A stretch of 64,000 bases of DNA from Escherichia coli (GTDB taxonomy: Bacteria > Pseudomonadota > Gammaproteobacteria > Enterobacterales > Enterobacteriaceae): assembly GCF_003790525.1 (NCBI RefSeq), contig NZ_CP033636.1; one strand, 5' to 3'. Below are positions 886-63,881 of the stretch, piece by piece. A program made the position numbers and the translations under genes. The notes beneath the pieces were generated by a model. That model was not told the DNA's origin. It searched no databases and worked only from the letters and a program-made list of their open reading frames with translations. Within the stretch, counting starts at the first letter, position 1. Every line of letters starts with the position of its first letter.

Positions 886-896
886 AAAGTTACTTT
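886..896. repeat. AAAGTWACTTT palindrome copy
   Basis: exact aaagttacttt in intergenic DNA upstream of the 1118 gene. Confidence 0.6.
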
Positions 897-950: not shown

Positions 951-961
951 AAAGTTACTTT
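951..961. repeat. AAAGTWACTTT palindrome copy
   Basis: exact aaagttacttt, 65 bp from the previous copy. Confidence 0.6.
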
Positions 962-7600: not shown

Positions 7601-7653
7601 GTAATCAACGAGTATGCATTGTCTTTTGAAAGCATCGCTGGAAACGTACGATT

Positions 7654-7664
7654 AAAGTAACTTT
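7654..7664. repeat. AAAGTWACTTT palindrome copy
   Basis: exact aaagtaacttt between the repeat array and the 3' end of the 7768..10188 gene. Confidence 0.6.
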
Positions 7665-7767: not shown

Positions 7768-10188
7768 TTACTTCAACTCGTCGATCTGAATCATGAATTC
7801 TGAGGTGCCAACTTTCCCATTTTCGGAAGGATAAACGGGTAACAGAAGATTATCCCCCTGGCCCATATCTATTTGCACCTCAACTGACTCGCCTGGAGCC
7901 GCCTGTGCCCCATTAAATTTAATACCGAAGGCTGCATCCTTCCGCACAGTCAGCGTTGCGTTCTGGACCCCTTTAGCAATTTCTCCATTTGTCTTACGCA
8001 GAACGTTAGTGGACAGGTACGCAAGTGGTACGCCATCTGTCGTTTTGAGAGGTGAACTGACCGACAATGTGCGTAGATTATGTAACTGCACAAGGTTATT
8101 CGGTAGATAACTGAACTTCTGAGTATAGGTTTTGGTATTCGACTGACTATCGGCAACTGTTACGCTAATTGAATAATTTTCAGATGGTTCGAAATTTGGG
8201 AACAGCCTCGGATACTCAGGCATGTATGTATCTTTGCCTGCCGGTGACCACGTAAGCTCAACGTTATCAGCTGTGGGGCCACCTACGAGCTGAAGACGGG
8301 TTATCCTCGGGGTTGTCAGATTATCTGCCAGAGCGATCCTGAGGTTCTCCAGGCCGTACACTACCGTATCGTCTTTTACCGGCTTTCCGTCGAATGTTAT
8401 GGCCACTGTCGGAGGAGTGTTATCCAGAGCAATTTCTCCGAAAGTTTTATTGGTCTGGTTCTGGAAGAAGTCCCTGATGTTGACCTCAACGTTGTATTTT
8501 CCTTCAGACTGACGGGATAAATCATAAGCAATCGTGTAGTTACCTGAGATACGAGATTTGATTACGCCTGTTGGTGACATCCGGGTACCGGTGTTCTTAT
8601 CGGAAAGATAAAATTCCCTCAATGAGACCGAGTCGAACCAGTTACCATCGCCTTCAAGTGACGCCAGTACATCCAGCTGCTTGTTAGTCTCGTCATATGA
8701 TATCGAGTTTATTACCGGCAGTTGTTTATTGTTCCAGCGTGTCATAATCCATTGCTCAGACCGCAAAATGGGATTGCTGATGCTGCGAACGAAGTAAAGG
8801 ATTCTATTGTAGCCCTGGGTACCCAAGGCCATATCAAACGTCTCAGGCGCTTCACACGAGGTTTTTCCTGCCGGAATGGTGCAGGTCGCCTTACCGCCGA
8901 TCTCCTGTGCAAAGGGCCGGGCTTCAACGTTAAAACGAAGTCGGGAAATTTTAATTGGCAGTCGTGATGAAGCCACACTCTCAAAATCCTTCCACTTAAC
9001 CCAGTTCCCCTTATCATCGAGGAAATCTACCCAGGTACCCGCAAATGCAGGCGTTTGGTTTGCAGATGGGTTTAGAACGAGGCTGTATGACGGATAATAC
9101 CCTCCCCACTGGCCAAAGTTCGCCATACGAGCCATATCCCCATTAATTGAGCCATAGGGAAGAGTCATTTCAACATAAGCATAAGTGCTGTCTACAGCTA
9201 TCTCTTTGGGGGCGGAATATTGATTGATGAACTGAAGCCCACCTTCTGAATAAGCACGGTAGTTAGATTTTGGGATCCGGTAGACTAATCGAATAGGGTT
9301 TTCGTTAACGACCATACCGGCTTTGTAAGCCGGATAATTAGAAACCCCGGGTACGACGCTGGAAGACGTATTTGGATCATGAACGGCCCACAGTGTCATC
9401 TCACCCAGCGTGTTGTCGTAGCGAAATTTTTGAGTTGGCAGCGTTCGGCTATTACCTGCGTTATCGAAGATAACAACTTTTGCAGTAAAGTCTTCATCCA
9501 GGTTGCTGTCTGGTATTCCGGTTCCCTTAACTGAATTCTTAGAGTAAGTGTGGTACATCTTTTGGCCGGATACGTCATACTGCATCTGTGTAGTGCTGTA
9601 GAGGCTACCGTCCTGCCTGTAAATATATATTAGGCCCTTATCAATACCATTTGCATCACTTACGCCCGAAGAGGTGAAGTCATACTGCCCCGTTGCCTCT
9701 AATCCAAGCTTCCACACGTCACCAGCGGTAGAGCCAGAACCAGTATTAGCGGTAAGAGCATTTGCCGCTGGAGGGGTGACATCAATTAGCCAGTTATAGT
9801 TATAGGTCGCTACAGGCTTCTGATTGAGATCTAACACGTTTATCTGAACGACAAATTTGCCTTCACCCAAAGCAGGCAAAGTTACTTTTTTGCCGTAGAA
9901 CTCACTACCGTCAGCAGCTGTTAGTCGGTCTGATACACCCGTCCGTGTAGTCGTAGTATTAAGAATGACAGTTCCAGTGTCTTTCGTGACTTTGACATTA
10001 ACGAAACGATCAAGACCTGAAATAAGTGTCAAAGTTACCGGTGATGCCGGATTAAGCATAAGACGAGAAGACGGGGCGTGGATCTCAATACCGTTCGTGT
10101 CCTTAAAGGCCGATTCATATATCTGAGCTGGGGCCTGAACAGACATACCGAGTCCGGCTACAGCAGTAATAAAAGCGAGATGTTTCAT
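7768..10188 (-). CDS. secreted large Ig-like-domain protein, paralog B
   Basis: 806-aa ORF; signal-peptide-like N-terminus MKHLAFITAVAGLGMSVQAPA; motifs IDVTPP and LDNTPPTVA; C-terminal block FSYLPNNLVQLHNLRTL...TVRKDAAFG shared with paralogs. Confidence 0.6.
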   Translation of the reverse strand: MKHLAFITAVAGLGMSVQAPAQIYESAFKDTNGIEIHAPSSRLMLNPASPVTLTLISGLDRFVNVKVTKDTGTVILNTTTTRTGVSDRLTAADGSEFYGKKVTLPALGEGKFVVQINVLDLNQKPVATYNYNWLIDVTPPAANALTANTGSGSTAGDVWKLGLEATGQYDFTSSGVSDANGIDKGLIYIYRQDGSLYSTTQMQYDVSGQKMYHTYSKNSVKGTGIPDSNLDEDFTAKVVIFDNAGNSRTLPTQKFRYDNTLGEMTLWAVHDPNTSSSVVPGVSNYPAYKAGMVVNENPIRLVYRIPKSNYRAYSEGGLQFINQYSAPKEIAVDSTYAYVEMTLPYGSINGDMARMANFGQWGGYYPSYSLVLNPSANQTPAFAGTWVDFLDDKGNWVKWKDFESVASSRLPIKISRLRFNVEARPFAQEIGGKATCTIPAGKTSCEAPETFDMALGTQGYNRILYFVRSISNPILRSEQWIMTRWNNKQLPVINSISYDETNKQLDVLASLEGDGNWFDSVSLREFYLSDKNTGTRMSPTGVIKSRISGNYTIAYDLSRQSEGKYNVEVNIRDFFQNQTNKTFGEIALDNTPPTVAITFDGKPVKDDTVVYGLENLRIALADNLTTPRITRLQLVGGPTADNVELTWSPAGKDTYMPEYPRLFPNFEPSENYSISVTVADSQSNTKTYTQKFSYLPNNLVQLHNLRTLSVSSPLKTTDGVPLAYLSTNVLRKTNGEIAKGVQNATLTVRKDAAFGIKFNGAQAAPGESVEVQIDMGQGDNLLLPVYPSENGKVGTSEFMIQIDELK

Positions 10189-12466: not shown

Positions 12467-12483
12467 TTCAGATTTGGCCTTGG

Positions 12484-13248: not shown

Positions 13249-13275
13249 TTTGTTTTCCTTTTCTGTGTTGGCTTT

Positions 13276-13311
13276 ATATTAACAATCCAGATGCACGAGC
13301 TAATAACCTCC
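13276..13311 (-). promoter_or_regulatory. island promoter module, minus-strand copy
   Basis: reverse complement reads GGAGGTTATTAGC-N19-TAATAT, positioned upstream of the 13248 start. Confidence 0.45.
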
Positions 13312-13808
13312 AGACAACTTTTTCAAAAATTATATACTTAAAGCAGGGGCTAATATGCGCAAGAAATGAATTTAGGAAGGATGGCTTCAAATTTAACTTT
13401 TTGGTTTTTTATTTTAGACGGACTTTAAAATAGCATCGCTGGTAAAATAATAAACATGGTTTATTTTTTGTTTGTATTGACAATCAAATGGGTAAAAATT
13501 AATTTACTTACATGGCGTATATTTAATGCCACCGTCCCGGCGGCACCGGGCATAAAAGGAAAACCATCTTGAAACCAATGCTCAAAAAAGATTTTTTTTC
13601 AGCTATTGAAAACCTTCTCAAAGCTGGCTTTCAACCTCGCTTTTACACTGTTAACAGTGGACGAATCGGTCTCATTACATTCACTGATAAAAATGGAACA
13701 AAACAGGTCCCGCCGGGCAGAAAAGAAAAACATTAAAATTAGCTATTTTCCCGAAAAGATCTCGAACACTGAAAAAGTATCATGGGGAACCTGATCAGGA
13801 GACAACCC

Positions 13809-16199
13809 ATGAAAATCAAACTAGCCCTGCTTATTGCATTTGCAGGTTTCAGCGCAGGAGCTTCCGCTGAAATCGCAGAATTCAGCTTTAAAGATACCCT
13901 GAACGTTAAAAAGACCGTATCGCCTGCATCCGTATGGATTAATCCGGTAACGAGCTTTGACGTTGCCGTTATTTCCGGTCTGGACCGTTATATTACGCTC
14001 AGTCTGCTGAAAAGTGACGGGAGCCTCATCTGGAGCACGAAAAGCAGCCTGGTTACCGTAGATGACCGTACCACATCTTCGACAGGCTTTGATTATTACG
14101 GCAAGACTCTGACCGTACCAGCGATGGGAGAAGATAGCTTCACCCTCAGAGAGGTGATTACCGACTTGCAAGGGAAGGAGGTCTCCCGGCAGGATTACCC
14201 GCTTGCAATTGACCGAACGCCTCCGGCAACGGGTACCATAAGTTATACGAGAAACGGGTGGAACTTTGGCAGCGAAGCGATCTTCACTTCAGTACCAGCC
14301 GGTATGCAGTACGCCAGCGTCCAGGCACTGGTCTTTAATGGACTGAGTGATAAAGGTTCCGGGCTTGCTAATGCTGAATATTTCATAACCGATGCCGCTG
14401 GAGTGGAGCGTAAAAAGCCAGCGGAAATTAATACAGTGGAAGGTAGCGTAACCGTTCAAGTCGCCGACGCAAGCAGCAATGCCCTGGCACCGGAAAACCG
14501 CTCTGAATATAAAGTGGGGATCTACCTTTATGACAAAGCGGGAAACAGGATCGAACTAAGCCGCCGAAGCGTAATTGATCGGGTTAAGCCTGACGATATC
14601 ATCCAGGTGCAGGACGCCACTACCGGATCATGGGTCACTTATCAGTCTGGCATGACCGTCTTCCAGAACCCTATTTCCGTACGGGTATTAAGGAAAAAAA
14701 GTGACTTTACTGCTGTTAACGGTTCCAAATATGGCTGGGCGGACTCGAATTTCCAGACGTCCGATAGCACTTATAATATTTATACTTTCAAATACATATA
14801 TCCCAATGTGGGGGATACTTATCATGAATTCCAGACTCTGGCAGGAGGAGTAAGACGAATTCATCATAACTCCCTCAACTTCACTCCAGCCCCGGCGATG
14901 GAAATAGCCCCGAAGATAGTGGCTAAAGAGATGTACCGGAGTGATACCAGTGAGTGGTTAACTCAGGCCTCAATCAGCGTTAAAACCGCCACCATTAGCC
15001 GCATAAAGGTAACCGCTGAACCCCGACCATACGTGCAAAAGTTCAGAACGGTAAAAAATGCAGCCTGGTTCTGCACTATACCTATCGGACAAAGTTCATG
15101 CGAGATGACGGTTAACTTCAACTACACCAGTGACAAAGGATTTGAGTATCTGCACCTTTACTCGGGAAAAGATGGTGACAGCATATTCGATGCGCTTGCT
15201 GGTAATTTTACGGTTATCTGGGATAACAACCCACCGGTGGTTAATGTCGCTCAGGTAAACAAGGCCTCCAAGACAATCACTATGACGGCCACCGATAATG
15301 ATCGCGTCAACGCCTGGAACATCAGCTACTGGGATACCAAAGTTTTCGAAGCCACCCTTAAAAATGCCCGGGGGGAACCTTTCACGCTGAAGCCTGTGAC
15401 CGTCAGTGAAAGCGATTATAAAACCAAAAACGCCACCTTCTCATACGCTGGTCTACCGGACGGGGATTATACGGTGGTTAGCGTCTCTGCCACGGATCTT
15501 GTTGGAAACACCGGAACCAAAACGCTTAATGCACCGCTGAAAATTGACTCAACGCTTCCGGTTATCGCGTTCAGTTTTAATGGCGCAGACGCAGAAGGAA
15601 AACTGGTTAAAGGGCTTGAGAACCTTCGCATAAGCGTTACTGATGCCTCTGGGGATGCTTCCCTGACATCGCTTCAGCTCGCTGGTGGACCTAACTCTGA
15701 AAAGGTCACCCTGGCATTCACGCCGTTATCCAAGGATGTCTTTATTCCGGAATACCCCAGAATCTTCCCCAACACTGACGAATCGGGACAGATGTATCAT
15801 CTGGAGGCACTGGCTATTGACGAATCAGGTAACCGGACCACTAAAACGCTTAATTTTACCTACCAGCCTGCGAATCTGATTATGCTGGATAATCTCAAGA
15901 CGCTGGCCACAGCCGTAGCACTGAAAGCAACGGACAACACGCCGCTGGCCATCATCCGAACCAGTGTGTTGCGGCGTCAGGACGGTTCTATCATTACCGG
16001 ACAGTTAAACGGAACCCTGACTGTTCAGAAAAATGCCCAGTTCGGCGTTACGGTTGCCGGAGTTACGGTCCAGCCTGGTGAAACTAAATCGCTGTCACTG
16101 GATCTTGGTAATGGTGAAGAGCGCACGTATCCCGTTACTCCCGCTGTAAGTGGTCAATCTGGCACGGCCACATTTGCTATAGAATTCCCTCAAACATAA
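13809..16199 (+). CDS. secreted large Ig-like-domain protein, paralog C
   Basis: ORF 13782..16199; likely start at MKIKLALLIAFAGFSAGASA (13809); motifs IDRTPP and IDSTLPVIA; C-terminal block FTYQPANLIMLDNLKTL...TVQKNAQFG shared with paralogs. Confidence 0.6.
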   Translation: MKIKLALLIAFAGFSAGASAEIAEFSFKDTLNVKKTVSPASVWINPVTSFDVAVISGLDRYITLSLLKSDGSLIWSTKSSLVTVDDRTTSSTGFDYYGKTLTVPAMGEDSFTLREVITDLQGKEVSRQDYPLAIDRTPPATGTISYTRNGWNFGSEAIFTSVPAGMQYASVQALVFNGLSDKGSGLANAEYFITDAAGVERKKPAEINTVEGSVTVQVADASSNALAPENRSEYKVGIYLYDKAGNRIELSRRSVIDRVKPDDIIQVQDATTGSWVTYQSGMTVFQNPISVRVLRKKSDFTAVNGSKYGWADSNFQTSDSTYNIYTFKYIYPNVGDTYHEFQTLAGGVRRIHHNSLNFTPAPAMEIAPKIVAKEMYRSDTSEWLTQASISVKTATISRIKVTAEPRPYVQKFRTVKNAAWFCTIPIGQSSCEMTVNFNYTSDKGFEYLHLYSGKDGDSIFDALAGNFTVIWDNNPPVVNVAQVNKASKTITMTATDNDRVNAWNISYWDTKVFEATLKNARGEPFTLKPVTVSESDYKTKNATFSYAGLPDGDYTVVSVSATDLVGNTGTKTLNAPLKIDSTLPVIAFSFNGADAEGKLVKGLENLRISVTDASGDASLTSLQLAGGPNSEKVTLAFTPLSKDVFIPEYPRIFPNTDESGQMYHLEALAIDESGNRTTKTLNFTYQPANLIMLDNLKTLATAVALKATDNTPLAIIRTSVLRRQDGSIITGQLNGTLTVQKNAQFGVTVAGVTVQPGETKSLSLDLGNGEERTYPVTPAVSGQSGTATFAIEFPQT

Positions 16200-16567
16200 G
16201 CTCTTCAGAAGGGTGCGGTAGTATGCCGTACCCTGTTACGCCATCCTCAATGTAATATGTAGAGTTGAGCATGACTTAATTATTACTTTCTCATTAAGTG
16301 GCTCTTAAATTGCAAACGGGAAAGTAATATTCCCGAGACGGGAAGGACGCCTTCCTTTTGGTTTTAATCTATGATGCTAAACCGTTTAATCACTCCGGAA
16401 CAATGCCCGCGTTTAAATGGCTGGCACCAGTACATGATTTATCCATGAATGCTTTTTGATGCACTTTTACTTCAGAATGCTCTTAATTTTTTAAACAAAA
16501 TTATATTTGAATCCTTCGTGTATAAATTTGCAGACCCTCTCTCAATGTTTTTTTAAAATATTTACTC

Positions 16568-16603
16568 TCAGGTTATTAGCCAGTAGATTCATTCTGTCAT
16601 GAT
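16568..16603 (+). promoter_or_regulatory. island promoter module copy
   Basis: tcaggttattagcc then 19 bp then catgat, about 30 bp upstream of the 16634 start. Confidence 0.45.
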
Positions 16604-16633
16604 TACTCCAGAACTAACCGGAGGAATCACATT

Positions 16634-17104
16634 ATGACCAAATATTATGATCGCAGTGGAATTGAAATCTCCAGCGCAAAAATCCGCTGTGTTGATTCTG
16701 TAAAAGGTACTGCGGAATATACTTTTCGTATTCTTTGCGATAAATGCAATGGTCGGGGAGAGCGTAAGCATTTTTATAGAAGTCGCTGTATGGCTTGTAA
16801 AGCCACGGGTTACAGCCTCGAAACGACCCGCACTGCTTACACGCTGAATGCGCTGTACCGCATTAATGCTCAAGCTGCCCGCAAAGTGTCAGCATCCTTG
16901 CAAAACGAGCGTTTGAGGACTGAAAACGCCCACAACTCTGCGTTCAATGCATGGTGCAGATCTCATCAAAAAATGGTTGATGCAATCACCCAGCAATCCA
17001 GCAGTAATAATTTTCTGGAAAGCCTTAAGTCTTCTTTAACCCACCAGCGTCAGTTAAGTGATAAGCAGCTGGCAGTCGCCGCCCGCATTTTAGGGATTCA
17101 TTAA
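16634..17104 (+). CDS. hypothetical protein with CxxC...CxxC zinc-ribbon-like motif
   Basis: 156-aa ORF with RBS ggagg; CDKCNGRG...CMACKATG cysteine pairs; immediately upstream of the HigB-like gene. Confidence 0.5.
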   Translation: MTKYYDRSGIEISSAKIRCVDSVKGTAEYTFRILCDKCNGRGERKHFYRSRCMACKATGYSLETTRTAYTLNALYRINAQAARKVSASLQNERLRTENAHNSAFNAWCRSHQKMVDAITQQSSSNNFLESLKSSLTHQRQLSDKQLAVAARILGIH

Positions 17105-17153
17105 TTCAAAGCCCTTTTAATTTAATTTTAAGGTCAATTATTACGGAGGAACT

Positions 17154-17450
17154 ATGATCCATTCATTTAAAGACAGACGGCTTGAAAAGTTCTTCCGTAA
17201 TGGAAAAACAACGGCAGGTATTCCTTCTGAAATTATTAACGCGATTCTGTGTCGACTCGAAACGCTGGATAATGTCCAGAGTGAGCGGGAGTTATTATCC
17301 AACAGCTTGCGTTATGAACGCTTAAGAATGACGTCAAACCGTTATTCCTCCATTCGAGTAAACTCTAAGTATCGATTATTCTTTGAATGGAATGATGGCG
17401 CACATAATGTCCATTTGTCAGCACATGACTATAAATCGCTCATCCATTAA
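17154..17450 (+). CDS. higB: HigB-like toxin (RelE/ParE superfamily, killer-protein family)
   Basis: 98-aa ORF; MIHSFKDRRLEKFF...SIRVNSKYRLFFEWNDG...HDYKSLIH matches the HigB pattern MIxSFK...L..F...R...RL.F...D.....DYH. Confidence 0.55.
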   Translation: MIHSFKDRRLEKFFRNGKTTAGIPSEIINAILCRLETLDNVQSERELLSNSLRYERLRMTSNRYSSIRVNSKYRLFFEWNDGAHNVHLSAHDYKSLIH

Positions 17451-18866: not shown

Positions 18867-18877
18867 AAAGTTACTTT
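18867..18877. repeat. AAAGTWACTTT palindrome copy
   Basis: exact aaagttacttt, 120 bp upstream of a promoter module. Confidence 0.6.
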
Positions 18878-33065: not shown

Positions 33066-33076
33066 AAAGTAACTTT
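33066..33076. repeat. AAAGTWACTTT palindrome copy
   Basis: exact aaagtaacttt, about 30 bp after the stop of 32744..33037. Confidence 0.6.
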
Positions 33077-33216: not shown

Positions 33217-33420
33217 ATGAAAATGTTTTTTACCCCTTATGTTCGTATCGTTTTCTATTTTTGCGCATTGATTTTTATTGTTTACAGTTTCAGTGATTTT
33301 TTCCAGGGCGTCCCTGACAGCACCTTCTTCAGTGCGGTCATCATGCTACTTGTTATCGGAACCATTGTTGCCCGGCATCTGGATCGCAAAAAATCTCTCA
33401 AAAATACTTCACAGATTTAA
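33217..33420 (+). CDS. hypothetical small membrane protein
   Basis: 67-aa ORF with two hydrophobic segments. Confidence 0.35.
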   Translation: MKMFFTPYVRIVFYFCALIFIVYSFSDFFQGVPDSTFFSAVIMLLVIGTIVARHLDRKKSLKNTSQI

Positions 33421-41504: not shown

Positions 41505-41515
41505 AAAGTAACTTT
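41505..41515. repeat. AAAGTWACTTT palindrome copy
   Basis: exact aaagtaacttt upstream of the ParB-like gene. Confidence 0.6.
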
Positions 41516-41630
41516 TCTCTCTGAGTCACCTTCTGAACCAGTTATTTTGCTTAAACGTAAAAACGGCCCACTGTTGTGAAGATTTAAAACGGACGGATCG
41601 AGTAGTATTGCCTCAGGAAAATTTTTAAAA

Positions 41631-41641
41631 AAAGTTACTTT
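41631..41641. repeat. AAAGTWACTTT palindrome copy
   Basis: exact aaagttacttt, abutting a promoter-module variant. Confidence 0.6.
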
Positions 41642-41651
41642 TTCTTCTCCG

Positions 41652-41690
41652 CAACCTATTAGGAAAAATGTCGAACCTGGTATTGTTGTG
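41652..41690 (+). promoter_or_regulatory. island promoter module, variant
   Basis: caacctattagg then 17 bp then tattgt, upstream of the 41732 start. Confidence 0.35.
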
Positions 41691-41731
41691 TTGTAGCGCA
41701 GTTAAACAACCAACCAAAAAAGAGAACAAAA

Positions 41732-42916
41732 ATGTCCGCAATCGAAACTGAAGTAAAAAACAACAGCAACGAAATCAGCCTTCGTGGTTACCTGGAACGC
41801 ACTGGTAACGGTGCCCGTAAAGGCAACGGCCTTATCATTGACCCTTCGGTTGTTGTAGAGCAGGAAGGCTTTAACACCCGCACGGCCGGTATGGGCGAGC
41901 TCTACTATTCAATGCCTCACGTTGTGGAACACCTGAACAGCCTGGCCGATGCCTACATGGAAGACCCGTTCAGCGTGACGCCTATCGTTGTTCAGATGGT
42001 TAATGGCGTACCTGTACTGCGTCAGGGGGCTTGCCGTATCCGTTCCATCGCTATTGCAAACCGCCAGCTGGAAGCAGAAGGGCGTGAACGCATTACTCGT
42101 ATTCGCTGCGAAGAGTTTCGCGGTAGCGCTTCAAAAGCAGAACTCTTCACCCTGACCGGCAACTCCAACCTGGCGCTGTCTGTCGTAGCTGAAGCGCTTT
42201 CAATTAAGCGTCTGGTTGAAGATAAAGAAGAGCCTAAGACCTTTGCGGAACTGGCAAAAAAACGTGGTAAATCAGAGCAGCATCTTCGCCAGATGGTTCG
42301 CGTACTGGACCTGCCTTCTGAACTACAGACCATGCTTGTGAGCGATCAGGTGAGCATGTACGTTGCACTGGACGAGTATATGTACAGCGGTGAGGATGCG
42401 GTAGATAACATCAACAAAGCGATCTCCATCTATGGCAAGGCGACGAAAAACACGCTGAAATTCGTCAAAGCTGCCAAGGTAGAAGAGCGCATGGCAGATC
42501 CGCAGACTCCGGAAAACATCGGTGCTGAGCAACCGGCAGATGATACTACCGATAACACCCCGGTACCGGATCAACTGAACGATGAAAGCAATACGGAGAC
42601 GCTGGATACGCCACCGGTACAGGAACCGGCTCCAGCTCCAAAGGACAGCGCTCCTAAACAGAACCCGGCAGGTAAAGCACCTTCCATGTCCAGCGTTCTG
42701 AACAAAAAGACTGTGACCGTCATTGCAGACACCGCGATCCCGATTTTTGAACGTATTGCTGAAGAAGCCAAGCTTAAAGAAGGTGAATCTGTCAGTACTG
42801 ATACTTACACGCTTGTTCTGACCAATGATGAAATGAACGATATCATCAACGCTCATGCTGACCTGAAAGAGTACCTGCGTAAGCATGCTGATAAGATGAA
42901 CAAGGGACAGTCATGA
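41732..42916 (+). CDS. ParB-like protein (ParB N-terminal domain plus HTH), no adjacent ParA
   Basis: 394-aa ORF; LIIDPS...FNTR...PIVVQMVNG...RQGACRIRS resembles the ParB/Srx fold; HTH-like TFAELAKKRGKSEQHLRQMVRVLDLPSELQ; acidic proline-rich linker. Confidence 0.5.
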   Translation: MSAIETEVKNNSNEISLRGYLERTGNGARKGNGLIIDPSVVVEQEGFNTRTAGMGELYYSMPHVVEHLNSLADAYMEDPFSVTPIVVQMVNGVPVLRQGACRIRSIAIANRQLEAEGRERITRIRCEEFRGSASKAELFTLTGNSNLALSVVAEALSIKRLVEDKEEPKTFAELAKKRGKSEQHLRQMVRVLDLPSELQTMLVSDQVSMYVALDEYMYSGEDAVDNINKAISIYGKATKNTLKFVKAAKVEERMADPQTPENIGAEQPADDTTDNTPVPDQLNDESNTETLDTPPVQEPAPAPKDSAPKQNPAGKAPSMSSVLNKKTVTVIADTAIPIFERIAEEAKLKEGESVSTDTYTLVLTNDEMNDIINAHADLKEYLRKHADKMNKGQS

Positions 42917-42924
42917 TTTTCTGA

Positions 42925-42960
42925 CCGACCCCTCCATCCGGACGGGTCGGTAACTTTTTC
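42925..42960 (+). terminator. candidate terminator after the ParB-like gene
   Basis: stem ccgaccc / gggtcgg with 12-nt loop, then taacttttt. Confidence 0.35.
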
Positions 42961-44030: not shown

Positions 44031-44085
44031 GGTGATGCTGCCAACTTACTGATTTAGTGTATGATGGTGTTTTTGAGGTGCTCCA

Positions 44086-44361
44086 GTGGCTTCTGTTTCT
44101 ATCAGCTGTCCCTCCTGTTCAGCTACTGACGGGGTGGTGCGTAACGGCAAAAGCACTGCCGGACATCAGCGCTATCTCTGCTCTCACTGCCGTAAAACAT
44201 GGCAACTGCAGTTCACTTACACCGCTTCTCAACCCGGTACGCACCAGAAAATCATTGATATGGCCATGAATGGCGTTGGATGCCGGGCAACCGCCCGCAT
44301 TATGGGCGTTGGCCTCAACACGATTTTCCGCCATTTAAAAAACTCAGGCCGCAGTCGGTAA
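44086..44361 (+). CDS. insA: IS1 InsA
   Basis: 91-aa [43 protein letters not shown]. Confidence 0.95.
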
Positions 44362-44783
44362 CCTCGCGCATACAGCCGGGCAGTGACGTCATCGTCTGCG
44401 CGGAAATGGACGAACAGTGGGGATACGTCGGGGCTAAATCGCGCCAGCGCTGGCTGTTTTACGCGTATGACAGGCTCCGGAAGACGGTTGTTGCGCACGT
44501 ATTCGGTGAACGCACTATGGCGACGCTGGGGCGTCTTATGAGCCTGCTGTCACCCTTTGACGTGGTGATATGGATGACGGATGGCTGGCCGCTGTATGAA
44601 TCCCGCCTGAAGGGAAAGCTGCACGTAATCAGCAAGCGATATACGCAGCGAATTGAGCGGCATAACCTGAATCTGAGGCAGCACCTGGCACGGCTGGGAC
44701 GGAAGTCGCTGTCGTTCTCAAAATCGGTGGAGCTGCATGACAAAGTCATCGGGCATTATCTGAACATAAAACACTATCAATAA
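44280..44783 (+). CDS. insB: IS1 InsB
   Basis: 167-aa frame overlapping insA, consistent with the IS1 frameshift-fusion arrangement. Confidence 0.9.
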
Positions 44784-44964
44784 GTTGGAGTCATTACCGG
44801 CAGCTGCTTTTCAACGCGTGGTGTAACAATCGCGTCCCTAACACAGCGGTGCTGGCTCTTCTACTCCAGCAGTGCTTATCTCATTTCCAGTGCGAAGAAG
44901 TGATCGCAGCCTGGCAGTAACCCTATCAAGCCCCTTCGTATAGCGGAGGGGCAGGAGATATCTC

Positions 44965-47456: not shown

Positions 47457-47467
47457 AAAGTAACTTT
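47457..47467. repeat. AAAGTWACTTT palindrome copy
   Basis: exact aaagtaacttt in intergenic DNA. Confidence 0.6.
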
Positions 47468-47630
47468 CTGACTCACCACGTACGCCCCTCGGTTATGCCA
47501 TACAGTTTGATACGAAAACAGATCAGTAAGTAGATTGCTATACGCCGGAGAGAAGTCTATTTTTCATACACCGAACCTGTTTGGCCTGCAATGGAAGCAG
47601 GTATAATAATCACATACAAAGGAGGGCATT

Positions 47631-52307: not shown

Positions 52308-54388
52308 TGAAACTTCCTTAGAAATTTATTAAGATTTTTGATATCGAGATTTTGACGCAAAGTAACTTTTCCGGCCTTCTTGAAAAGCATTTCCGACAGA
52401 GTTGTGTTTGGCTTCATTTGTTTCTCAGCAACAGCAATAGGGATTTGGCCTACAACCTTCCTGCCATCTTGAAGCCTGGCAACTATGTGAAACATAGGGA
52501 CCTGACCCAAGAGATCCTTTGGAATACTCTCTTCTAAAGTTGTCTGCTTTCTTTCTGAGATTGAACCTGAGAAGTTATTATGCGGCAAAGATGTTTCTGA
52601 ACCGGTCGTATAAGTGACCATATTTGTGCTTATCGCACTCTTACCAAAGTTCTCTACAACAAGCGTCTGAGTAGGAGTATCGTTGACTCGCAAGCTTATA
52701 TAATTGTTGCAGAGCCCCGTAATTCGATTGGCAGTTTCAACACTTGCCGCAGCAATAAAGTCGGAGATGGTTTGGGTGCAAATAAACAGTGCAATTTTCG
52801 CTGCACGACCCTGCGCCAGAAGGTTAATCATAGGGTTGTTAATGGCTGAGTGTGCCTCATCAACAAAAATACTTATCCTGGAATTAGCTGACATATCACC
52901 ATCCTGAGCGTTGTAGCGACTACCGGCACAGGAGGTCAGATCTGACATTATTAATTGAGAAATAGCAGCTGCTGTATCGGGGTTTGAAAGGCCATCAAGC
53001 GAAATGTATAGCACCCCGCCAGTGCTGAACATCCCTTCGCTTGTTACAATTTCTCTTGATGATACTGAGTTCGGGTTAGGAGATAAAAGCTCATTTAAAG
53101 GTTTTTCAATGAGCATATCGAAAACAGGCATAATACCTGCGGTCATTTTAGCCATATGCTCTGGGTCGGACATTGAGTAATCAATAAGCTGGGAAACAGT
53201 ATCTAACCAGTCTATTTGTTCGGACCCCTCGTAATTCATGAAATGAGCCGTAAACCATTCAGCGAGACGCTTGAAACGTACCGGCAAGGTTTCGTTAGCG
53301 ACGTACTTAACTTTTTCGGTCCAGACATCGTAACCATAATATCTCGCGTAACATGACTCCATTACCTTGACTGTAAGATTCACAATAGACATGTGGCTTT
53401 TCATGTTCTTGTGAATCAGATAAATAGAAGGCTTTTTCTCTATGTAAGAAAGCCCGGAAATCACATTGGAAACGAGAGCCTTGGCATACTGAACGAATGG
53501 GTTAACCTCACCGGGAACTGTCACCAAGCTCAAAAGACGAGATGTTAGGTCAGAAACATTAGTATAGGTGTTGCAGACATCAATACAGACCGAAGATGCT
53601 GGCTGGCCAGGATGAAATTTATAGAAAGGAAGACCGAGGGTCTTAGCCTCTTCCATTAGAGATTCTCGCCACTCTGCATCGTTCTTTGGATCTATGACAA
53701 CAACAACATGACCAAGATGAAGCATGCTAATGCTTAGTAAACGCTGTAGCACCGTTTTCCCGGTACCCACGTTTCCGGTTATCAGAGTATGACCAAACCA
53801 ATTGTCTTCAGTTACAAATATGGGTTCCCTACGTTCCACAGCAAAAATTGCATTGCTGCCGCCCATCTTACGAGCCATTGCGTCAAAATGTCTCTTAATT
53901 GGGTTGAAGACGAATGGCAACTCGATCTCACGTTTATCACTGGAGAGGTTAGCTATTTGATATGCCCGATCCGCATGTTCCGGGCCCCACTCAAACCCAT
54001 CACAAAAATAGGACTTTCGCTCGGGTATATCCTTATTTTTATTTTGATAATCCTGAACCAGTTGACGATACTTTCGCTCATTGGAGAAAAAGTTACTTTT
54101 GTTAATTACACGCAGTGAATCAAGACTAACGAACATGAAATGTCGCTTGAATACACGCCAATGAGCCATCAAGAATGGCGCTGCTGTTTTGCAACGATAA
54201 AGGCACAGCAAAAAAAGCAATATTGAGGTGAACAGAACTATTGGGGCGATGTCCAGTCCGTCTGAAGAAAGTCCCATATAAAGCATAGAAACCGAACAAA
54301 TCAAAAGTATTGAGGCACTACGATACTCAAGAATAGGCCGATAAAAATTCTCTTGTGCATGGAGGTTAGTCCTCTTCGAATCTGACAT
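52304..54388 (-). CDS. type IV coupling protein (TraG/TraD/VirD4 family)
   Basis: 694-aa ORF; two N-terminal membrane helices; Walker A GNVGTGKT and hydrophobic strand VVVVIDPKND; adjacent to the relaxase. Confidence 0.7.
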   Translation of the reverse strand: MSDSKRTNLHAQENFYRPILEYRSASILLICSVSMLYMGLSSDGLDIAPIVLFTSILLFLLCLYRCKTAAPFLMAHWRVFKRHFMFVSLDSLRVINKSNFFSNERKYRQLVQDYQNKNKDIPERKSYFCDGFEWGPEHADRAYQIANLSSDKREIELPFVFNPIKRHFDAMARKMGGSNAIFAVERREPIFVTEDNWFGHTLITGNVGTGKTVLQRLLSISMLHLGHVVVVIDPKNDAEWRESLMEEAKTLGLPFYKFHPGQPASSVCIDVCNTYTNVSDLTSRLLSLVTVPGEVNPFVQYAKALVSNVISGLSYIEKKPSIYLIHKNMKSHMSIVNLTVKVMESCYARYYGYDVWTEKVKYVANETLPVRFKRLAEWFTAHFMNYEGSEQIDWLDTVSQLIDYSMSDPEHMAKMTAGIMPVFDMLIEKPLNELLSPNPNSVSSREIVTSEGMFSTGGVLYISLDGLSNPDTAAAISQLIMSDLTSCAGSRYNAQDGDMSANSRISIFVDEAHSAINNPMINLLAQGRAAKIALFICTQTISDFIAAASVETANRITGLCNNYISLRVNDTPTQTLVVENFGKSAISTNMVTYTTGSETSLPHNNFSGSISERKQTTLEESIPKDLLGQVPMFHIVARLQDGRKVVGQIPIAVAEKQMKPNTTLSEMLFKKAGKVTLRQNLDIKNLNKFLRKFH
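52359..52369. repeat. AAAGTWACTTT palindrome copy inside coding sequence
   Basis: exact aaagtaacttt within the 3' end of the coupling-protein gene. Confidence 0.4.
54089..54099. repeat. AAAGTWACTTT palindrome copy inside coding sequence
   Basis: exact aaagttacttt within the 5' part of the coupling-protein gene. Confidence 0.4.
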
Positions 54389-58949: not shown

Positions 58950-58960
58950 AAAGTTACTTT
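58950..58960. repeat. AAAGTWACTTT palindrome copy
   Basis: exact aaagttacttt in the divergent intergenic region. Confidence 0.6.
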
Positions 58961-59434: not shown

Positions 59435-59445
59435 AAAGTTACTTT
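59435..59445. repeat. AAAGTWACTTT palindrome copy
   Basis: exact aaagttacttt, about 80 bp upstream of the 59522 start. Confidence 0.6.
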
Positions 59446-61429: not shown

Positions 61430-62476
61430 ATGACTCGTATTGCATTAGCGCCTTCAAAGATGGTTTTGCTTATGTCTTTGGTAATTACTGGTGCCCACGC
61501 CAGCCCTGAGCAACCCCTAATAAAAGATACGCCCTTTGTATCAGGCCAGGCTTATAAGAAGGGTTTCTTCTGGTATGACGATCCTGCTAAAAAAAGCGAA
61601 GCTGAAGAAGAAAAGGTTTTGCCACCAACCGGTGCTGCTAGCTCGCCTTCAAAAGAGGAAAAGGTAGATTTAAATTCAAAATGGCTAAAAGAGAATATGC
61701 CTCGACTGTTAACGCAGGCAATGGATAACCCTACCGCAGAAAATCTATCACGTTATTACACGGCGCAAAGGTTAATGCTGGATATCAGTACGCGTTTTTC
61801 TGACAAATCAAAAGATTATTTTCTTAAAAACCCGATGATGTCTGAAAAACGCAGGCAACCAGTGGAAAAGGTGGCACTGGATGCTCACCGCACTGTTGTT
61901 GAAAAAAATCAGCAAACGGTAATGAAAGATATCTTTACTAAGTCAGGTTTATTTTTCTTTTTCCAGAGTACTTGCCAGTTTTGCCACGAAGAGAGCCAAA
62001 TACTTCAATTTATGCAGAACTATTATTCGGTAGATATTCTTCCAATCAGTATGGATGGAAGGCCATTGCATAATGGCCTTTTTCAGGATTTTAACATCCC
62101 CAATGCACAAATTATTGATCAATTTAAAATTCGAGAGGTACCTACAATTTTCCTGGTTTCAAAGGATGGGACATCAGCTCAGCGCATTAGTGAAGGCATG
62201 ATCTCCGCTGATGAATTAAAGAACACTATTATACTTGCCGCGAAGGGCATGAATCTGATCGATGACGCTTCGTTTCAGTCAACTCTAGATATTAAAAGGC
62301 AATATACCATCGGTGATGATGGCGTTATTACCGTTAATAAATCCGAAATGGAATCAGACCCATTCTTACTTCAAAAAATAATGGACCAAAAACTCGAAGG
62401 CTATGACATGCCTACGGCCGATCCGGTCAATTATCTCAATGCTGGCGGCAGTTTTGGAGGCACTTATGCGCAGTAA
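61430..62476 (+). CDS. periplasmic thioredoxin-fold protein, TraF/TrbB-like
   Basis: 348-aa ORF with RBS aaaaggag; signal-peptide-like N-terminus; CxxC motif TCQFCHEE. Confidence 0.45.
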   Translation: MTRIALAPSKMVLLMSLVITGAHASPEQPLIKDTPFVSGQAYKKGFFWYDDPAKKSEAEEEKVLPPTGAASSPSKEEKVDLNSKWLKENMPRLLTQAMDNPTAENLSRYYTAQRLMLDISTRFSDKSKDYFLKNPMMSEKRRQPVEKVALDAHRTVVEKNQQTVMKDIFTKSGLFFFFQSTCQFCHEESQILQFMQNYYSVDILPISMDGRPLHNGLFQDFNIPNAQIIDQFKIREVPTIFLVSKDGTSAQRISEGMISADELKNTIILAAKGMNLIDDASFQSTLDIKRQYTIGDDGVITVNKSEMESDPFLLQKIMDQKLEGYDMPTADPVNYLNAGGSFGGTYAQ

Positions 62477-63881
62477 TGCCGTTTTCAACTTCAAAAAGTT
62501 ACTTTTGTCTCTTTCTGTTTGTGCTGCAATTTTAGCCCCGACTGCAAATGCAGACAACGCAATGCGTAACATTTTCAATGGCATGATGACGTCTACCAGC
62601 CCGGCCACCTTTTCCACAGCAACCCGTACAGGCATAGTTGGCGGGTCAATGTCTTACCGAACAACAAACGTTAATACCAACCTTGTTTCCATGTCGTTTC
62701 CAAAAGCTTCTGTCGGTTGTAATGGTATTGACGTTTTTCTTGGGTCCTTCAGCATGATCAACGGGGACCAGCTTGTGCAGGTGGCCCGTGGTATTGCCCA
62801 GGGTGCGGCTATCTATGCTTTTAACGTTGCTGTTTCAGCTATTTGTGCTGACTGTGCTGCAACGATTAATGACATCCAAAACAAACTGCAAGCGCTAAAT
62901 AAATTTGCGAAAGATTCATGCAATGCAACTTACTCTTTCCTTTCTGAAAACGTGGGTACGCCAAGCCAGTTCGCTAACTCAGTTAGCTCTGGACCAGCCT
63001 CAATTCTGGGATCGATTAATGGTCTCATTCCTGATTTTGGCTCATCGATGACAAAGTCACCTGAAGCTGTCACTTCTCAGGTTAAAGCAAAGGATCCCGA
63101 AGAGTTCGCTGAAAAATTCAGTGGTAACCTCTTCTATATGTCGTTCATGGATATTGATAAGGGAACAATGAACATCGGAGGGGTAACGGAGTTATCCGGT
63201 TATAAATTGGCAGAACAACTTATGTCTCTCGTGGGTACTGTCATTATCAACTGGGATAGCAAAGGCGAAAAAGCGGGAATGGAAGTCCGCCCGTCTACCA
63301 TGACTGTCACGGATTACATCATGGGGCCACCAGCTGGCGGATCAATTAAAATGCTCAAGTGTTCTCCGGCACCAGATCCATCATCCCCACGAAAGGCTCA
63401 GTGCCTTGTCATGTCAGAAGTTAATGACGGTGGTTTTAAGGGATTGAAGGATACCATTTCTGATCTTCTTTTAAACGTACAGAAAAAAATCATCAACGAC
63501 GTTCGTGTTTCAGATGATGAATTACGCATTATCTCCTATATCGGCATCCCGACCATTATCGACTCTTTGCAAACATTCGAAGCACCGGAAGGGTACGCAT
63601 ACATTCAGGACATAAGCACTATTGCTGCGACGAGCCTCGTAATCAACATGTTGCGCCAGGTTGAGGCCAAAATTTCAACCATGAGCATACCGAGTGAGTC
63701 GCTGTCGGGTAAAAGGGATGATCTCAACCGATTAACAGACAATCTCTCAAAACAGGTTAAAGCCGCCTATGAGCTATCGCACAGCCAGGTCGGTACCAGC
63801 TCGGACGTCATTTCAACCTGGGATAACCGTCGCCTGCAACGGAAGGCTTTCACTGAAAGTATTCGTGGCACACGTAACTGA
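62466..63881 (+). CDS. TraH-like secreted pilus-assembly protein
   Basis: ORF 62403..63881; likely start at 62466 (MRSNAVFNFKKLLLSLSVCAAILAPTANA signal peptide), overlapping the upstream stop; stop codon TGA coincides with the first bases of the following IS end. Confidence 0.45.
   Translation: MRSNAVFNFKKLLLSLSVCAAILAPTANADNAMRNIFNGMMTSTSPATFSTATRTGIVGGSMSYRTTNVNTNLVSMSFPKASVGCNGIDVFLGSFSMINGDQLVQVARGIAQGAAIYAFNVAVSAICADCAATINDIQNKLQALNKFAKDSCNATYSFLSENVGTPSQFANSVSSGPASILGSINGLIPDFGSSMTKSPEAVTSQVKAKDPEEFAEKFSGNLFYMSFMDIDKGTMNIGGVTELSGYKLAEQLMSLVGTVIINWDSKGEKAGMEVRPSTMTVTDYIMGPPAGGSIKMLKCSPAPDPSSPRKAQCLVMSEVNDGGFKGLKDTISDLLLNVQKKIINDVRVSDDELRIISYIGIPTIIDSLQTFEAPEGYAYIQDISTIAATSLVINMLRQVEAKISTMSIPSESLSGKRDDLNRLTDNLSKQVKAAYELSHSQVGTSSDVISTWDNRRLQRKAFTESIRGTRN
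62495..62505. repeat. AAAGTWACTTT palindrome copy inside coding sequence
   Basis: exact aaagttacttt in the signal-peptide coding region of the TraH-like gene. Confidence 0.4.

Follow-up and report, generated by a model that had tools for sequence, protein, structure and literature searches.

On the backbone of IncHI2 plasmids, a gene for a ParB-like protein lies downstream of two copies of a palindrome, AAAGTWACTTT, that recurs across the backbone, which raises the question of whether this protein is the factor that reads the palindrome. We addressed this question in a 64-kb stretch of the backbone of such a large resistance plasmid, referred to here as the window. The ORF runs on the + strand from an ATG at 41732 to a stop codon at 42916 (394 aa plus stop), and its product is identical to WP_001272970.1, a record named "hypothetical protein" or "DNA-binding protein". 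WP_001272970.1 is carried by more than 500 IncHI2 plasmids, and 2,400 plasmid records match it when all identity bands are pooled, mostly from Salmonella, E. coli, Enterobacter, and Klebsiella. The genes around it are small and hypothetical, the only annotation that most genes of the backbone have. The ORF belongs to a long row of co-oriented small genes that adjoins the relaxase operon and includes Hok, DUF957, DUF3085, orphan methyltransferases, and an HNH gene, a content reminiscent of leading regions. The gene and the parts of its product are located as follows.

41732..42916, + strand: orphan ParB-like ORF, identical to WP_001272970.1 (Pfam, PHROG, Foldseek, family profile)
41780..42166, + strand: N-terminal ParB/Srx (ParB-CTPase) fold domain, aa 17–145 (AF2, Foldseek, profile alignment, invariant columns)
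42026..42046, + strand: box II GACRIRS, in which GxxRxx(A/S) is kept but Ala and Cys stand in place of the GERR Glu and first Arg
42176..42496, + strand: ParB-type HTH DNA-binding domain, aa 149–255 (PF17762; PDB sequence matches 6S6H and 6T1F; alignment)
42497..42694, + strand: disordered acidic, proline-rich linker, aa 256–321 (pLDDT <50, composition, alignment gaps)
42695..42913, + strand: conserved C-terminal helical domain, aa 322–394 (alignment, AF2 model)

The protein is a diverged, ParA-less member of the ParB-CTPase-fold family. The Pfam model HTH_ParB (PF17762) matches residues 149–209 (E 1.5e-5), PHROG 1033 ("ParB-like partition protein") matches residues 24–255 (E 1.6e-21), and a family profile aligns with Caulobacter ParB (6T1F) from box II to the HTH with an E value of 5e-12. 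In the AF2 model the N-terminal and HTH domains mostly have a pLDDT of ~90, and its best Foldseek matches are ParB-CTP, Noc, and KorB structures, all at probability 1.00, with a TM-score of 0.66 (normalised to the target) and an rmsd of 4.8 for KorB 8QA9. The ParB N-terminal domain and HTH that the initial annotation had read from the sequence alone are thus upheld by Pfam, PHROG, the family profile, and the structural model, and its acidic, proline-rich linker is borne out by 15 Asp/Glu and 13 Pro among the 73 residues from 250 to 322 (pI 4.05). This linker varies in length and sequence between orthologues and leads into a C-terminal domain with helices at 325–346 and 365–390, which is presumed to mediate dimerisation. 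The predicted recognition helix of the HTH is GKSEQHLRQMVRVL (aa 179–192), and a conserved peptide, SLR(G/T)(Y/F/W)(L/V/I)E, precedes the N-terminal fold.

The nucleotide-pocket motifs are altered. Box I reads GFNTR (R50), box II reads G99-A-C-R102-I-R104-S105, which fits GxxRxx(A/S), and box III reads G-N144-S-N-L; the box I Arg and the box III Asn are kept and the box III Arg is lost. The profile alignment places RqGhCRlrA opposite aGERRWRAA of Caulobacter ParB. Orthologues have GxxRxxA in box II, and the Ala position is His in relatives, giving G(A/H)CR with a Cys that is nearly invariant in the subfamily alignment. Because the catalytic Gln and Glu and two CTP-contacting Arg of canonical ParB are all substituted in this protein, a CTP switch is doubtful. 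The score against TIGR00180 is 29.5 bits, under the curated cut-off of 58.45, and Pfam reports HTH_ParB with no KorB domain. It is highly improbable that the protein is instead a ParB/Srx-fold enzyme or establishment factor, such as a nuclease or anti-defence protein that acts early after transfer, and takes no part in sequence-specific regulation. The altered G(A/H)CR box with its near-invariant Cys and the place of the gene in a leading-region-like row beside the relaxase operon are what this explanation has in its favor, but neither a nuclease domain nor ParBc was matched in Pfam or NCBIfam and the PADLOC defence and anti-defence models gave no match, leaving the nuclease role that had been suggested for orphan ParB-like proteins of this kind with no support here.

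The absence of a ParA partner nearby holds for the whole window, where tblastn with the ParA and ParM of the plasmid itself found no homologue (best E 0.41) and no reading frame contains a deviant Walker A motif. Nor does a regular-expression search for the N-terminal ParA-binding motif, defined as [LFI]G[KR]G[LFI] (PMC12704722), match the protein or its paralogues. Elsewhere the plasmid carries ParA/ParB as well as ParM/ParR, and a 2.6-kb array of ~250-bp repeats lies directly upstream of the canonical parA. A ParA partner elsewhere with a classical parS was what the initial annotation had named as speaking against its reading; a ParA does exist elsewhere, but the objection is formal only, as this ParA has a ParB of its own next to it, together with a separate repeat array, and so leaves the window gene unclaimed. 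We also considered the ParB of this canonical system as the reader of the palindrome, in the style of IncC plasmids, and judged this unlikely because no palindrome lies near parA and the system has its separate array upstream.

Upstream of the ORF we found the two palindromes and the variant promoter module that had been described within 230 bp of the start codon, with the palindromes beginning at −227 and −101 and the module at 41655–41686.

41505..41515, no strand: distal palindrome AAAGTAACTTT, exact AAAGTWACTTT, 227 bp before the ATG
41582..41600, + strand: 19-bp block ATTTAAAACGGACGGATCG, located between the palindromes and identical in IncHI2 and IncHI1A
41631..41641, no strand: proximal palindrome AAAGTTACTTT, exact AAAGTWACTTT, 101 bp before the ATG
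41655..41686, + strand: promoter-like module CCTATTAGG-N15-GGTATTGT, a putative promoter from comparative alignment
42924..42959, + strand: terminator-like hairpin ACCGACCCC...GGGUCGGU followed by AACUUUUU (dG −21.7 kcal/mol, z −4.0)

The module consists of a −35-like TTAGGA (41659–41664), a 16-nt spacer, and an extended −10, TGGTATTGT (41678–41686), and its 32-nt layout is the same as that of the modules at 23226 and 47576. Relative to the predicted transcription start, the distal palindrome is centred at about −183 and the proximal one, which sits within A7-GTTAC-T5, at about −57. The proximal palindrome ends 17 bp before the −35-like hexamer and overlaps neither the −35 nor the −10, so simple steric repression is unlikely. 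The terminator-like hairpin follows immediately 3' of the stop codon. With this hairpin at its end and the promoter-like module in front, the gene is apparently transcribed as a unit by itself. A consensus promoter and terminator scan called neither element, the module resting on comparative alignment and the hairpin on folding; the scan probably missed the hairpin because the apical region exceeds its loop limit of 3–8 nt. Two palindromes at its own promoter would allow the protein to regulate its own gene, but many unrelated genes also have a palindrome upstream, and the arrangement is thus weak evidence for autoregulation.

The palindrome is far more frequent than chance would allow. The window contains 17 exact copies against 0.09 expected, and none of 100 shuffled sequences had 17 or more, whereas a complete IncHI2 relative of 276 kb contains 42 exact copies, or 49 if any central base is accepted. 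One-mismatch variants on this plasmid number only 25, seven of which differ solely at the centre, and the palindrome is the sole dispersed backbone palindrome that it carries. In its extended form the site is A(A)AAGT-W-ACTT(T)T, a 6+1+6 arrangement present in ~45 dispersed copies on IncHI backbones; as a probe of 17–25 bp it is written AAAAGTWACTTTT and as a 25-bp duplex AAAAAAAGTTACTTTTT. Besides the two copies upstream of the ParB-like gene, the window has the following.

886..896, no strand: intergenic copy upstream of the Ig-like gene at 1118, exact match
951..961, no strand: copy 167 bp upstream of the Ig-like gene at 1118, exact match
7654..7664, no strand: copy ~100 bp past the 3' end of the Ig-like gene 7768–10188 (− strand)
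9878..9888, no strand: copy within the Ig-like gene 7768–10188, near its 5' end
18867..18877, no strand: copy 181 bp upstream of the ORF at 19048
23079..23089, no strand: copy 217 bp upstream of the ORF at 23296 and 147 bp before the promoter module at 23226
28128..28138, no strand: copy downstream of the PAPS-reductase-family gene
30859..30869, no strand: copy 162 bp upstream of the ORF at 31021
33066..33076, no strand: copy 151 bp upstream of the ORF at 33217
47457..47467, no strand: copy 174 bp upstream of the ORF at 47631 and 119 bp before the promoter module at 47576
52359..52369, no strand: copy inside the 3' end of traD
54089..54099, no strand: copy inside the 5' part of traD
58950..58960, no strand: copy in the oriT-containing intergenic region, on the mobI side
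59435..59445, no strand: copy 87 bp upstream of the ORF at 59522
62495..62505, no strand: copy inside the ORF 62403–63881

The copy at 7654–7664 overlaps the end of a 61-aa ORF (7475–7660) that is possibly spurious. The copies at 58950 and 59435 are 485 bp apart, a spacing that is identical in IncHI1A, and the copy in the 3' end of traD occupies the same position in IncHI1A and in a compact IncHI-like plasmid (L016), with its central base flipped. Intergenic enrichment is significant both in the window (p = 6e-4) and plasmid-wide (p = 8e-6), and accessory DNA is nearly free of the palindrome, with one copy between 85 and 150 kb. We therefore rejected coding or compositional bias as its origin: the shuffles expect only 0.09 copies, exact copies outnumber one-mismatch variants, the copy inside traD persists although the sequence around it and its own central base have changed, and accessory DNA has almost none. 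Inspection of the copies against the ORF map revealed no obvious pattern linking the central base (A or T) to gene direction. Full-text literature searches with both forms of the 11-mer returned no relevant paper, and searches for IncHI together with ParB-like, KorB, or palindrome returned nothing on this system.

The spread of these copies bears on whether a ParB-like protein is the reader at all. A factor outside this family, be it part of the HtdA/TrhR/TrhY circuit, a small unannotated HTH or RHH protein, or a host protein, might read the palindrome with the ParB-like gene as a mere target. Its appeal is that sites flank the oriT region and occur upstream of and inside tra genes as well as in the small-gene row, that the palindrome is without a tie to one particular protein, and that a backbone annotated mostly as hypothetical leaves room for such a factor. 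We nonetheless consider it rather unlikely, as an exact 6+1+6 palindrome maintained in ~45 copies on deeply diverged plasmids calls for a conserved plasmid-encoded dimeric reader, and the ParB-like proteins are the only recognisable HTH proteins found repeatedly beside clusters of sites. Nor is the palindrome known to resemble any host-factor consensus.

Deep conservation is evident from a comparison of IncHI lineages, for which distant loci were gathered from encoding-contig look-ups and PLSDB; a pattern scan of the genome collection (alignment A1) gave 38 matches, none of which was confirmed by tblastn. The palindrome stays the same in IncHI1A, IncHI1B, Yersinia-type, and other IncHI-like loci, where protein identity drops to 35–65%. 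The palindromes of the promoter region, which had been noted as copies of a global element, are non-random and part of a plasmid-wide set: the distal site is found upstream of the orthologue in each of the five lineages compared (IncHI2, IncHI1A, Yersinia type, P0025 type, and IncHI1B, where it falls within a cluster of six), and the proximal site, at about −100 to −120, is kept in four of the five and lost in P0025. The sites begin at −101 and −227 in IncHI2, −105 and −223 in IncHI1A, and −109 and −210 in the Yersinia type, whereas the IncHI1B orthologue has six within 870 bp, the nearest at −121. Between IncHI2 and IncHI1A the footprint is that of a conserved operator-like arrangement in which the palindromes and the promoter are preserved and the sequence between them has diverged. 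On the protein side, S/T181, H184, and R186 of the recognition helix are kept throughout the orthologue clade, and the IncHI1B helix differs at two positions (E182V and Q183T) despite an identical palindrome.

The claim that the window gene is the prime candidate for the reader proved overstated, because two more members of this ParB-like subfamily are encoded on the IncHI2 plasmid just beyond the window (three in all, paralogue 3 being WP_088631494.1), one of them with a palindrome upstream, and because the IncC precedent favors a ParA-partnered ParB. The paralogue in question, paralogue 2 (WP_000114859.1), adjoins a Dam methylase gene and has the palindrome or a conserved one-mismatch copy 13–130 bp upstream in every lineage checked: at −43, −13, and −130 in loci L015, L016, and L020, respectively, as a one-mismatch copy at about −91/−95 in IncHI2 and IncHI1A, and as an exact palindrome in IncHI1B, where four exact sites lie within 1.3 kb. 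In PLSDB the window gene and paralogue 2 nearly always co-occur, and the only records seen with paralogue 2 alone are IncHI2 deletion derivatives. The paralogues have different recognition helices, and the palindrome is therefore probably read by just one of them. It is possible, if unlikely, that this one is a paralogue, most plausibly paralogue 2, and that the window protein binds a different, low-copy target while its gene is one of many under control of the palindrome. With three paralogues in IncHI2 to choose from, the broader clade of paralogue 2, which is present in every palindrome-bearing element sampled including L015, L016, and L020, points in this direction, as does L016, in which palindromes are present and no orthologue of the window gene lies at the syntenic place next to Tra1, an absence that covers the syntenic position only of a 181-kb contig. 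Against it, the recognition helix of paralogue 2 varies more between lineages than that of the orthologue clade and is poorly conserved among lineages with an identical palindrome, and its upstream copy in IncHI2 and IncHI1A carries one mismatch where the window gene keeps two exact sites. The six-site cluster of IncHI1B also lies upstream of the window gene's orthologue, yet paralogue 2 has its four exact sites there.

KorB operators have a 6+1+6 geometry, the same as that of the IncHI palindrome. As in the IncHI set, the 13-bp KorB target with its odd centre is a palindrome dispersed over the backbone, in part near promoters and in part at a distance from them, and dispersed palindromic sites that include the gene's own promoter region, the mark of a KorB-type system, are present here as sequences (42 exact copies, two of them upstream of the gene). 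KorB of the IncP-1 plasmid RK2 (8QA8, 8QA9, and 1R71; PMC11790492) is likewise acidic, has the same ParB-CTPase fold, HTH, flexible linker, and C-terminal dimerisation domain, and is among the best structural matches of the modelled protein. In contrast, KorB has a ParA partner (IncC) and a canonical GERR box, whereas the IncHI protein has a GACR box and neither an adjacent ParA nor a ParA-binding motif; there are ~45 IncHI sites as opposed to 12 for KorB, and no KorA- or TrbA-like lock, a feature of the KorB system, was identified for the IncHI protein. The suggestion of a KorB-like regulator therefore stands as far as structure (8QA9) and site layout are concerned, but not with respect to the Pfam KorB domain and the partnership with ParA.

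A second precedent points to partition. In the IncC/IncA plasmid R55, 14 dispersed palindromes are bound by a ParA-partnered ParB (EMSA) and used for partition (PMC10954446). As in IncHI, this is a perfectly conserved palindrome dispersed over a MOBH-related plasmid, with some copies in ORFs and one in the promoter that drives the operon of its binder, which parallels the copies upstream of the IncHI gene; the IncC sites were also seen in locus L011. The IncC binder, however, is a KorB-domain ParB with a ParA, unlike the ParA-less IncHI protein, whose actual homologue in IncC (32% identity) is encoded by a separate orphan gene with no nearby site, and the IncC site (TTTCACATGTGAAA with flanks) differs in sequence from the IncHI palindrome. 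By extension of this precedent, the window protein could bind the palindrome at dispersed parS-like loading sites for partition, pairing, or compaction, perhaps with a ParA in trans, any effect on transcription being secondary. Under a generous ORF model, over half of the IncHI2 sites fall within ORFs, and the conserved peptide ahead of the fold would fit such a role. We regard it as improbable, considering that the plasmid already has two partition systems, one with its own repeat array, that the protein has neither the canonical ParA-binding motif nor an adjacent ParA, and that the sites are significantly enriched between genes and near promoter modules.

VirB of the Shigella virulence plasmid (PMC10770331) is an orphan plasmid-encoded ParB-like protein that acts from inverted-repeat sites on transcription and not on segregation. 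Its loading sites lie upstream of promoters at variable distances, and the IncHI protein is comparable to it in architecture and upstream site position only, as VirB has a functional CTP pocket and relieves H-NS silencing at a few promoters, whereas the IncHI protein has an altered box II and ~45 sites. A link of the IncHI protein to H-NS is speculation. Chromosomal ParB/Spo0J and Noc are its nearest sequence relatives with solved structures (family profile E values of 5e-12 to 1e-9) and have the N-domain boxes and HTH in common with it. It departs from these proteins in the change of GERRxR to GACRIR, the loss of the box III Arg, the missing ParA-binding motif, and a score below the TIGR00180 cut-off, and the 11–13-bp site is unlike the 16-bp parS or NBS.

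Taken together, the best reading is a KorB- or VirB-like plasmid-wide regulator that binds the palindrome, which we hold tentatively and at somewhat less than an even chance. Under this regulator model, a dimer of the protein would recognise A(A)AAGT-W-ACTT(T)T through its HTH domains, also at the two copies in front of its own gene and thus with autoregulation, and the ~45 dispersed sites would serve plasmid-wide regulation and not partition, in a mode resembling either the long-range repression by KorB on RK2 or the counter-silencing by VirB on pINV. We infer that the palindrome is read by this protein rather than by a paralogue or some other factor; the sign of the regulation and nucleotide-dependent clamping are likewise putative. 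A bolder and unlikely extension would be a ParA-independent, KorB-like IncHI network in which the three G(A/H)CR-box paralogues act as nucleotide-switched sliding or spreading clamps at the ~45 sites for silencing or counter-silencing of establishment, oriT/tra, and paralogue genes; such a network could be tied to the H-NS-dependent, temperature-sensitive conjugation of IncHI plasmids.

In Salmonella, E. coli, Enterobacter, and Klebsiella, IncHI plasmids are among the principal vehicles of resistance to multiple drugs and to colistin. The combination of an invariant palindrome in ~45 copies and three orphan ParB-fold proteins has the look of a global control circuit, so far undescribed, akin to the KorA/KorB regulon of IncP-1. 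If the link between them is true, the protein would be another ParB-CTPase fold with an altered pocket, having Cys for the first Arg of GERR, that acts apart from ParA, and the circuit would provide a handle on how plasmids of 200–400 kb coordinate establishment, transfer, and maintenance.

The ORF at 41732-42916 (+) encodes a protein of 394 aa, in agreement with the RefSeq call (WP_001272970.1), and the only Pfam model that it matches is the ParB-type HTH (residues 149-209, E 1.5e-5). Residues 24-255 match PHROG 1033, 'ParB-like partition protein' (E 1.6e-21), and the score against NCBIfam TIGR00180 is 29.5 bits, under the cut-off of 58.45. An AF2 model, for which the input alignment comprised 18 homologues, divides the protein as follows:

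About residues 17-145: N-terminal α/β domain, confidently modeled
Residues 150-255: helical HTH domain
Residues 256-321: disordered stretch
After residue 321: two C-terminal helices

In Foldseek comparisons, the first two domains cluster with CTP-bound ParB, Noc, and KorB, and the top superposition is with the KorB-KorA-DNA complex 8QA9 (target-normalised TM-score 0.66). Searched as a profile, the wider subfamily hits Caulobacter ParB (E 5e-12) from box II of the ParB N-domain motifs to the HTH, placing 'RqGhCRlrA' opposite 'aGERRWRAA' and 'gNdglaLs' opposite 'ENvqraDLn'. Because of this structural placement and profile alignment, we consider the N-terminal domain a true ParB-CTPase-fold homologue, and the protein is, by fold and HTH, a member of that superfamily. 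It retains the GxxRxx(A/S) signature (G99, R102), box I R50, and box III N144; the hydrolysis residues are substituted (box I Gln by Asn; box II Glu by Ala, or His in relatives), as are the box III Arg and the first Arg of GERR, which is replaced by a near-invariant Cys. An enzymatic or establishment role appears highly improbable. The linker (residues 250-322) contains 15 Asp/Glu and 13 Pro, has a pI of 4.05, and differs in length among orthologues. A motif search of the protein with the canonical ParA-binding motif as defined in PMC12704722 gave no match, and no ParA or ParM was found in the window. The initial annotation had described a ParB N-terminal domain plus HTH, an acidic, proline-rich linker, and no ParA nearby, and fold, linker composition, and window content bear this out. 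Ahead of the ParB fold, the peptide SLR(G/T)(Y/F/W)(L/V/I)E (41777-41797, aa 16-22) is kept across the orthologue clade and differs from the canonical ParA-binding motif; other clades have a related peptide, (S/G)L(K/R)x(F/L), in its place.

Several hundred IncHI2 plasmids from Salmonella, E. coli, Enterobacter, and Klebsiella are 100% identical over 1.7 kb around this gene. The window is collinear throughout with the complete IncHI2 plasmid pSTM6-275 (NZ_CP019647.1), outside insertion elements and an IS26/IncN-derived accessory segment, and contains:

A single replicon region that includes Ig-like protein genes
An extended run of small genes, co-oriented and without known function
Tra1 relaxase operon, minus strand: mobI, mobH, traD, onward to an S49 peptidase and a nuclease-related gene
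An intergenic region containing oriT
The beginning of the trh genes

A 768-bp IS1 copy (44031-44798) is inserted 1.1 kb 3' of the ParB-like gene at a position where pSTM6-275 has no insertion, and its flanks share a 9-bp overlap that resembles a target duplication. Repeats within the window's three 805-818-aa Ig-like protein genes may account for the k-mers TACCGTTGTCA and ACAACGGTAGTGA, which are present 7-14 times over the whole window.

The palindrome AAAGTWACTTT has 17 copies in the window (expectation 0.09) and 42, nearly all of them in the backbone, in the 275.8 kb of pSTM6-275, where it is the only dispersed backbone palindrome. Just 25 one-mismatch variants occur on that plasmid, 7 of them differing solely at the central base, and therefore the exact palindrome is under selection with a central W preferred; an extension to AAAAGTNACTTTT is seen in 23 of 49 palindrome copies. 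Intergenic copies are enriched in the window (10/17 vs. 20% non-coding, p = 6e-4) and plasmid-wide (18/42 vs. 14.5%, p = 8e-6), although many copies still lie inside ORFs. One of these lies in traD, 55 bp short of its 3' end, in three diverged lineages (window 52359; 30156 in the IncHI1A sequence L009; 18303 in the compact IncHI-like plasmid L016), and it is kept while its flanks differ and its central base is sometimes A and sometimes T, a pattern that argues for selection on the DNA and not on the encoded peptide. Two further copies bracket the oriT region at exactly 485 bp in both IncHI2 (58950, 59435) and IncHI1A (L009 36622, 37107); we take the intergenic stretch that separates mobI from the first trh-side gene to be the expected location of the IncHI oriT. 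This 11-mer also ranks first among palindromes in IncHI1A (14 copies in 41 kb), in IncHI1B (18 copies in 41 kb), in a plasmid contig from Yersinia (7 copies in 21 kb), and in further IncHI-like contigs, and we found no report of it in the searchable literature. The IncHI1B/IncFIB Klebsiella plasmids L010 and L013 also carry an unrelated GC-rich perfect hairpin repeat, CCCCCGCATGCGGGGG, usually after CCGATAAC, in about 18 copies in 41 kb (e.g., L013 19888-20572).

Palindromes lie upstream of the ParB-like gene in the five orthologue lineages that we compared (positions relative to the ATG):

IncHI2: -101 and -227
IncHI1A: -105 and -223
Yersinia type (44% identity): -109 and -210
IncHI1B (35% identity): six sites within 870 bp, the nearest at -121
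P0025 lineage (50% identity): distal site only, -257

The proximal site is thus kept in four of five lineages, where it sits within A and T tracts that yield a 17-19-bp palindrome. In the recognition helix of the orthologue clade S/T181, H184, and R186 are kept, and E182 and Q183 are altered in IncHI1B. Alignment of the IncHI2 and IncHI1A upstream regions shows that the two palindromes and their flanking bases are kept, as are a 19-bp block lying between the palindromes and TATTAGGAAA...TCGAACCTGGTATTGTTGT; the remainder has diverged. The block, ATTTAAAACGGACGGATCG (window 41582-41600; L009 19856-19874), is invariant between these two types and absent from the upstream regions of IncHI1B and the Yersinia type. 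The TATTAGGAAA...TCGAACCTGGTATTGTTGT element fits a predicted promoter in which 16 nt separate a -35-like TTAGGA from an extended -10 TGGTATTGT, and it forms one of three similar modules. Promoter-like modules of 32 nt (CCTNTTNGS-N15-GGTATNNT), fixed in internal spacing, precede three genes at a variable 24-147 bp downstream of a palindrome copy:

23226-23257, upstream of a + strand gene
41655-41686, upstream of the ParB-like gene, also on the + strand
47576-47607, upstream of a + strand gene

From the predicted start, the palindromes upstream of the ParB-like gene would be centered near -57 and -183. Because the gene has its own promoter-like module and a hairpin with a T-run directly 3' of its stop codon (dG -21.7 kcal/mol, z -4.0), it looks monocistronic.

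With slightly less than even confidence, we propose that a dimer of this protein would recognize the palindrome sequence-specifically, autoregulate through the two putative operators, and act plasmid-wide in the manner of KorB or VirB, which it resembles in architecture and site layout. Simple occlusion is unlikely, since 17 bp separate the end of the proximal site from the -35-like hexamer; to act, the protein would have to spread or slide, work with a partner protein, or contact RNA polymerase.

That this protein reads the palindrome is an inference, and a credible rival candidate is encoded on the same plasmid. Two further subfamily members, of 387 aa (paralogue 2) and 351 aa (paralogue 3), lie just beyond the window and, across the N-terminal and HTH domains, are 25-32% identical to its protein, so that IncHI2 has three orphan members besides its canonical ParB:

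pSTM6-275 269900-271060 (also L012 19827-20990), minus strand: paralogue 2, WP_000114859.1, adjoining a Dam methylase gene and starting ~3 kb past the window's left end
pSTM6-275 274270-275325 (also L008 12270-13325), minus strand: paralogue 3, WP_088631494.1, adjoining a RepB-family initiator gene and starting ~7 kb past the window's left end

Orthologues of paralogue 2 carry the palindrome upstream in four lineages (-13, -43, -117, -130), with a conserved one-mismatch copy at -91/-95 in IncHI2/IncHI1A, and L016 has palindromes and a paralogue 2-type gene, but its syntenic place holds no orthologue of the window gene. We rate a paralogue as the reader rather unlikely, and a non-ParB factor more so. 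The initial annotation's choice of the window protein as prime candidate is partly supported: the upstream sites and kept helix positions favor it, whereas the paralogues, L016, and the precedent of IncC weigh against it.

IncC plasmids, which are related to IncHI, have a different dispersed palindrome, ACTTTCACATGTGAAAGT, identified by EMSA in 2024 as the parS of a ParA-partnered, KorB-domain ParB and not of the orphan homologue (PMC10954446). In pIncAC2-1301491 (L011) copies lie at 295, 3879, 4338, 9652, 12988, 24028, and 27443. Its ends are the pentamers ACTTT...AAAGT, in everted order relative to the IncHI AAAGT-W-ACTTT, which may be coincidence or a trace of shared site ancestry. On pSTM6-275, which also has ParM/ParR, the ParA/ParB operon (14975-17229) has no palindrome copy upstream or within, the nearest lying ~0.8 kb 3' of parB. 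Immediately upstream of parA is a ~2.6-kb direct-repeat array (L004, a stretch of this plasmid, 12060-14565) with ~250-bp units, a conserved 31-bp core ATTTAACCCCCTTAATCGCCAAACTGGG in every unit, and no long ORF, probably the centromere of the module. Because the operon lacks such copies and has a separate array, an IncC-like assignment of the palindrome to the ParA-partnered ParB is unlikely in IncHI. It is distinctly unlikely that the orphan protein binds the palindrome to serve plasmid structure or partition.

The window protein does not qualify as a canonical partition ParB: it scores below the curated cut-off, no ParA is adjacent, and it lacks the ParA-binding motif. Unlike the KorB family proper, it has neither the KorB domain nor a ParA partnership. 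It belongs to a subfamily of plasmid-encoded orphan ParB-fold proteins that have a G(A/H)CR box and number three paralogues; the subfamily is associated with a dispersed palindrome that is deeply conserved and was absent from the literature searched. The putative system of palindrome and ParB-like proteins is coherent, conserved, and clinically placed.
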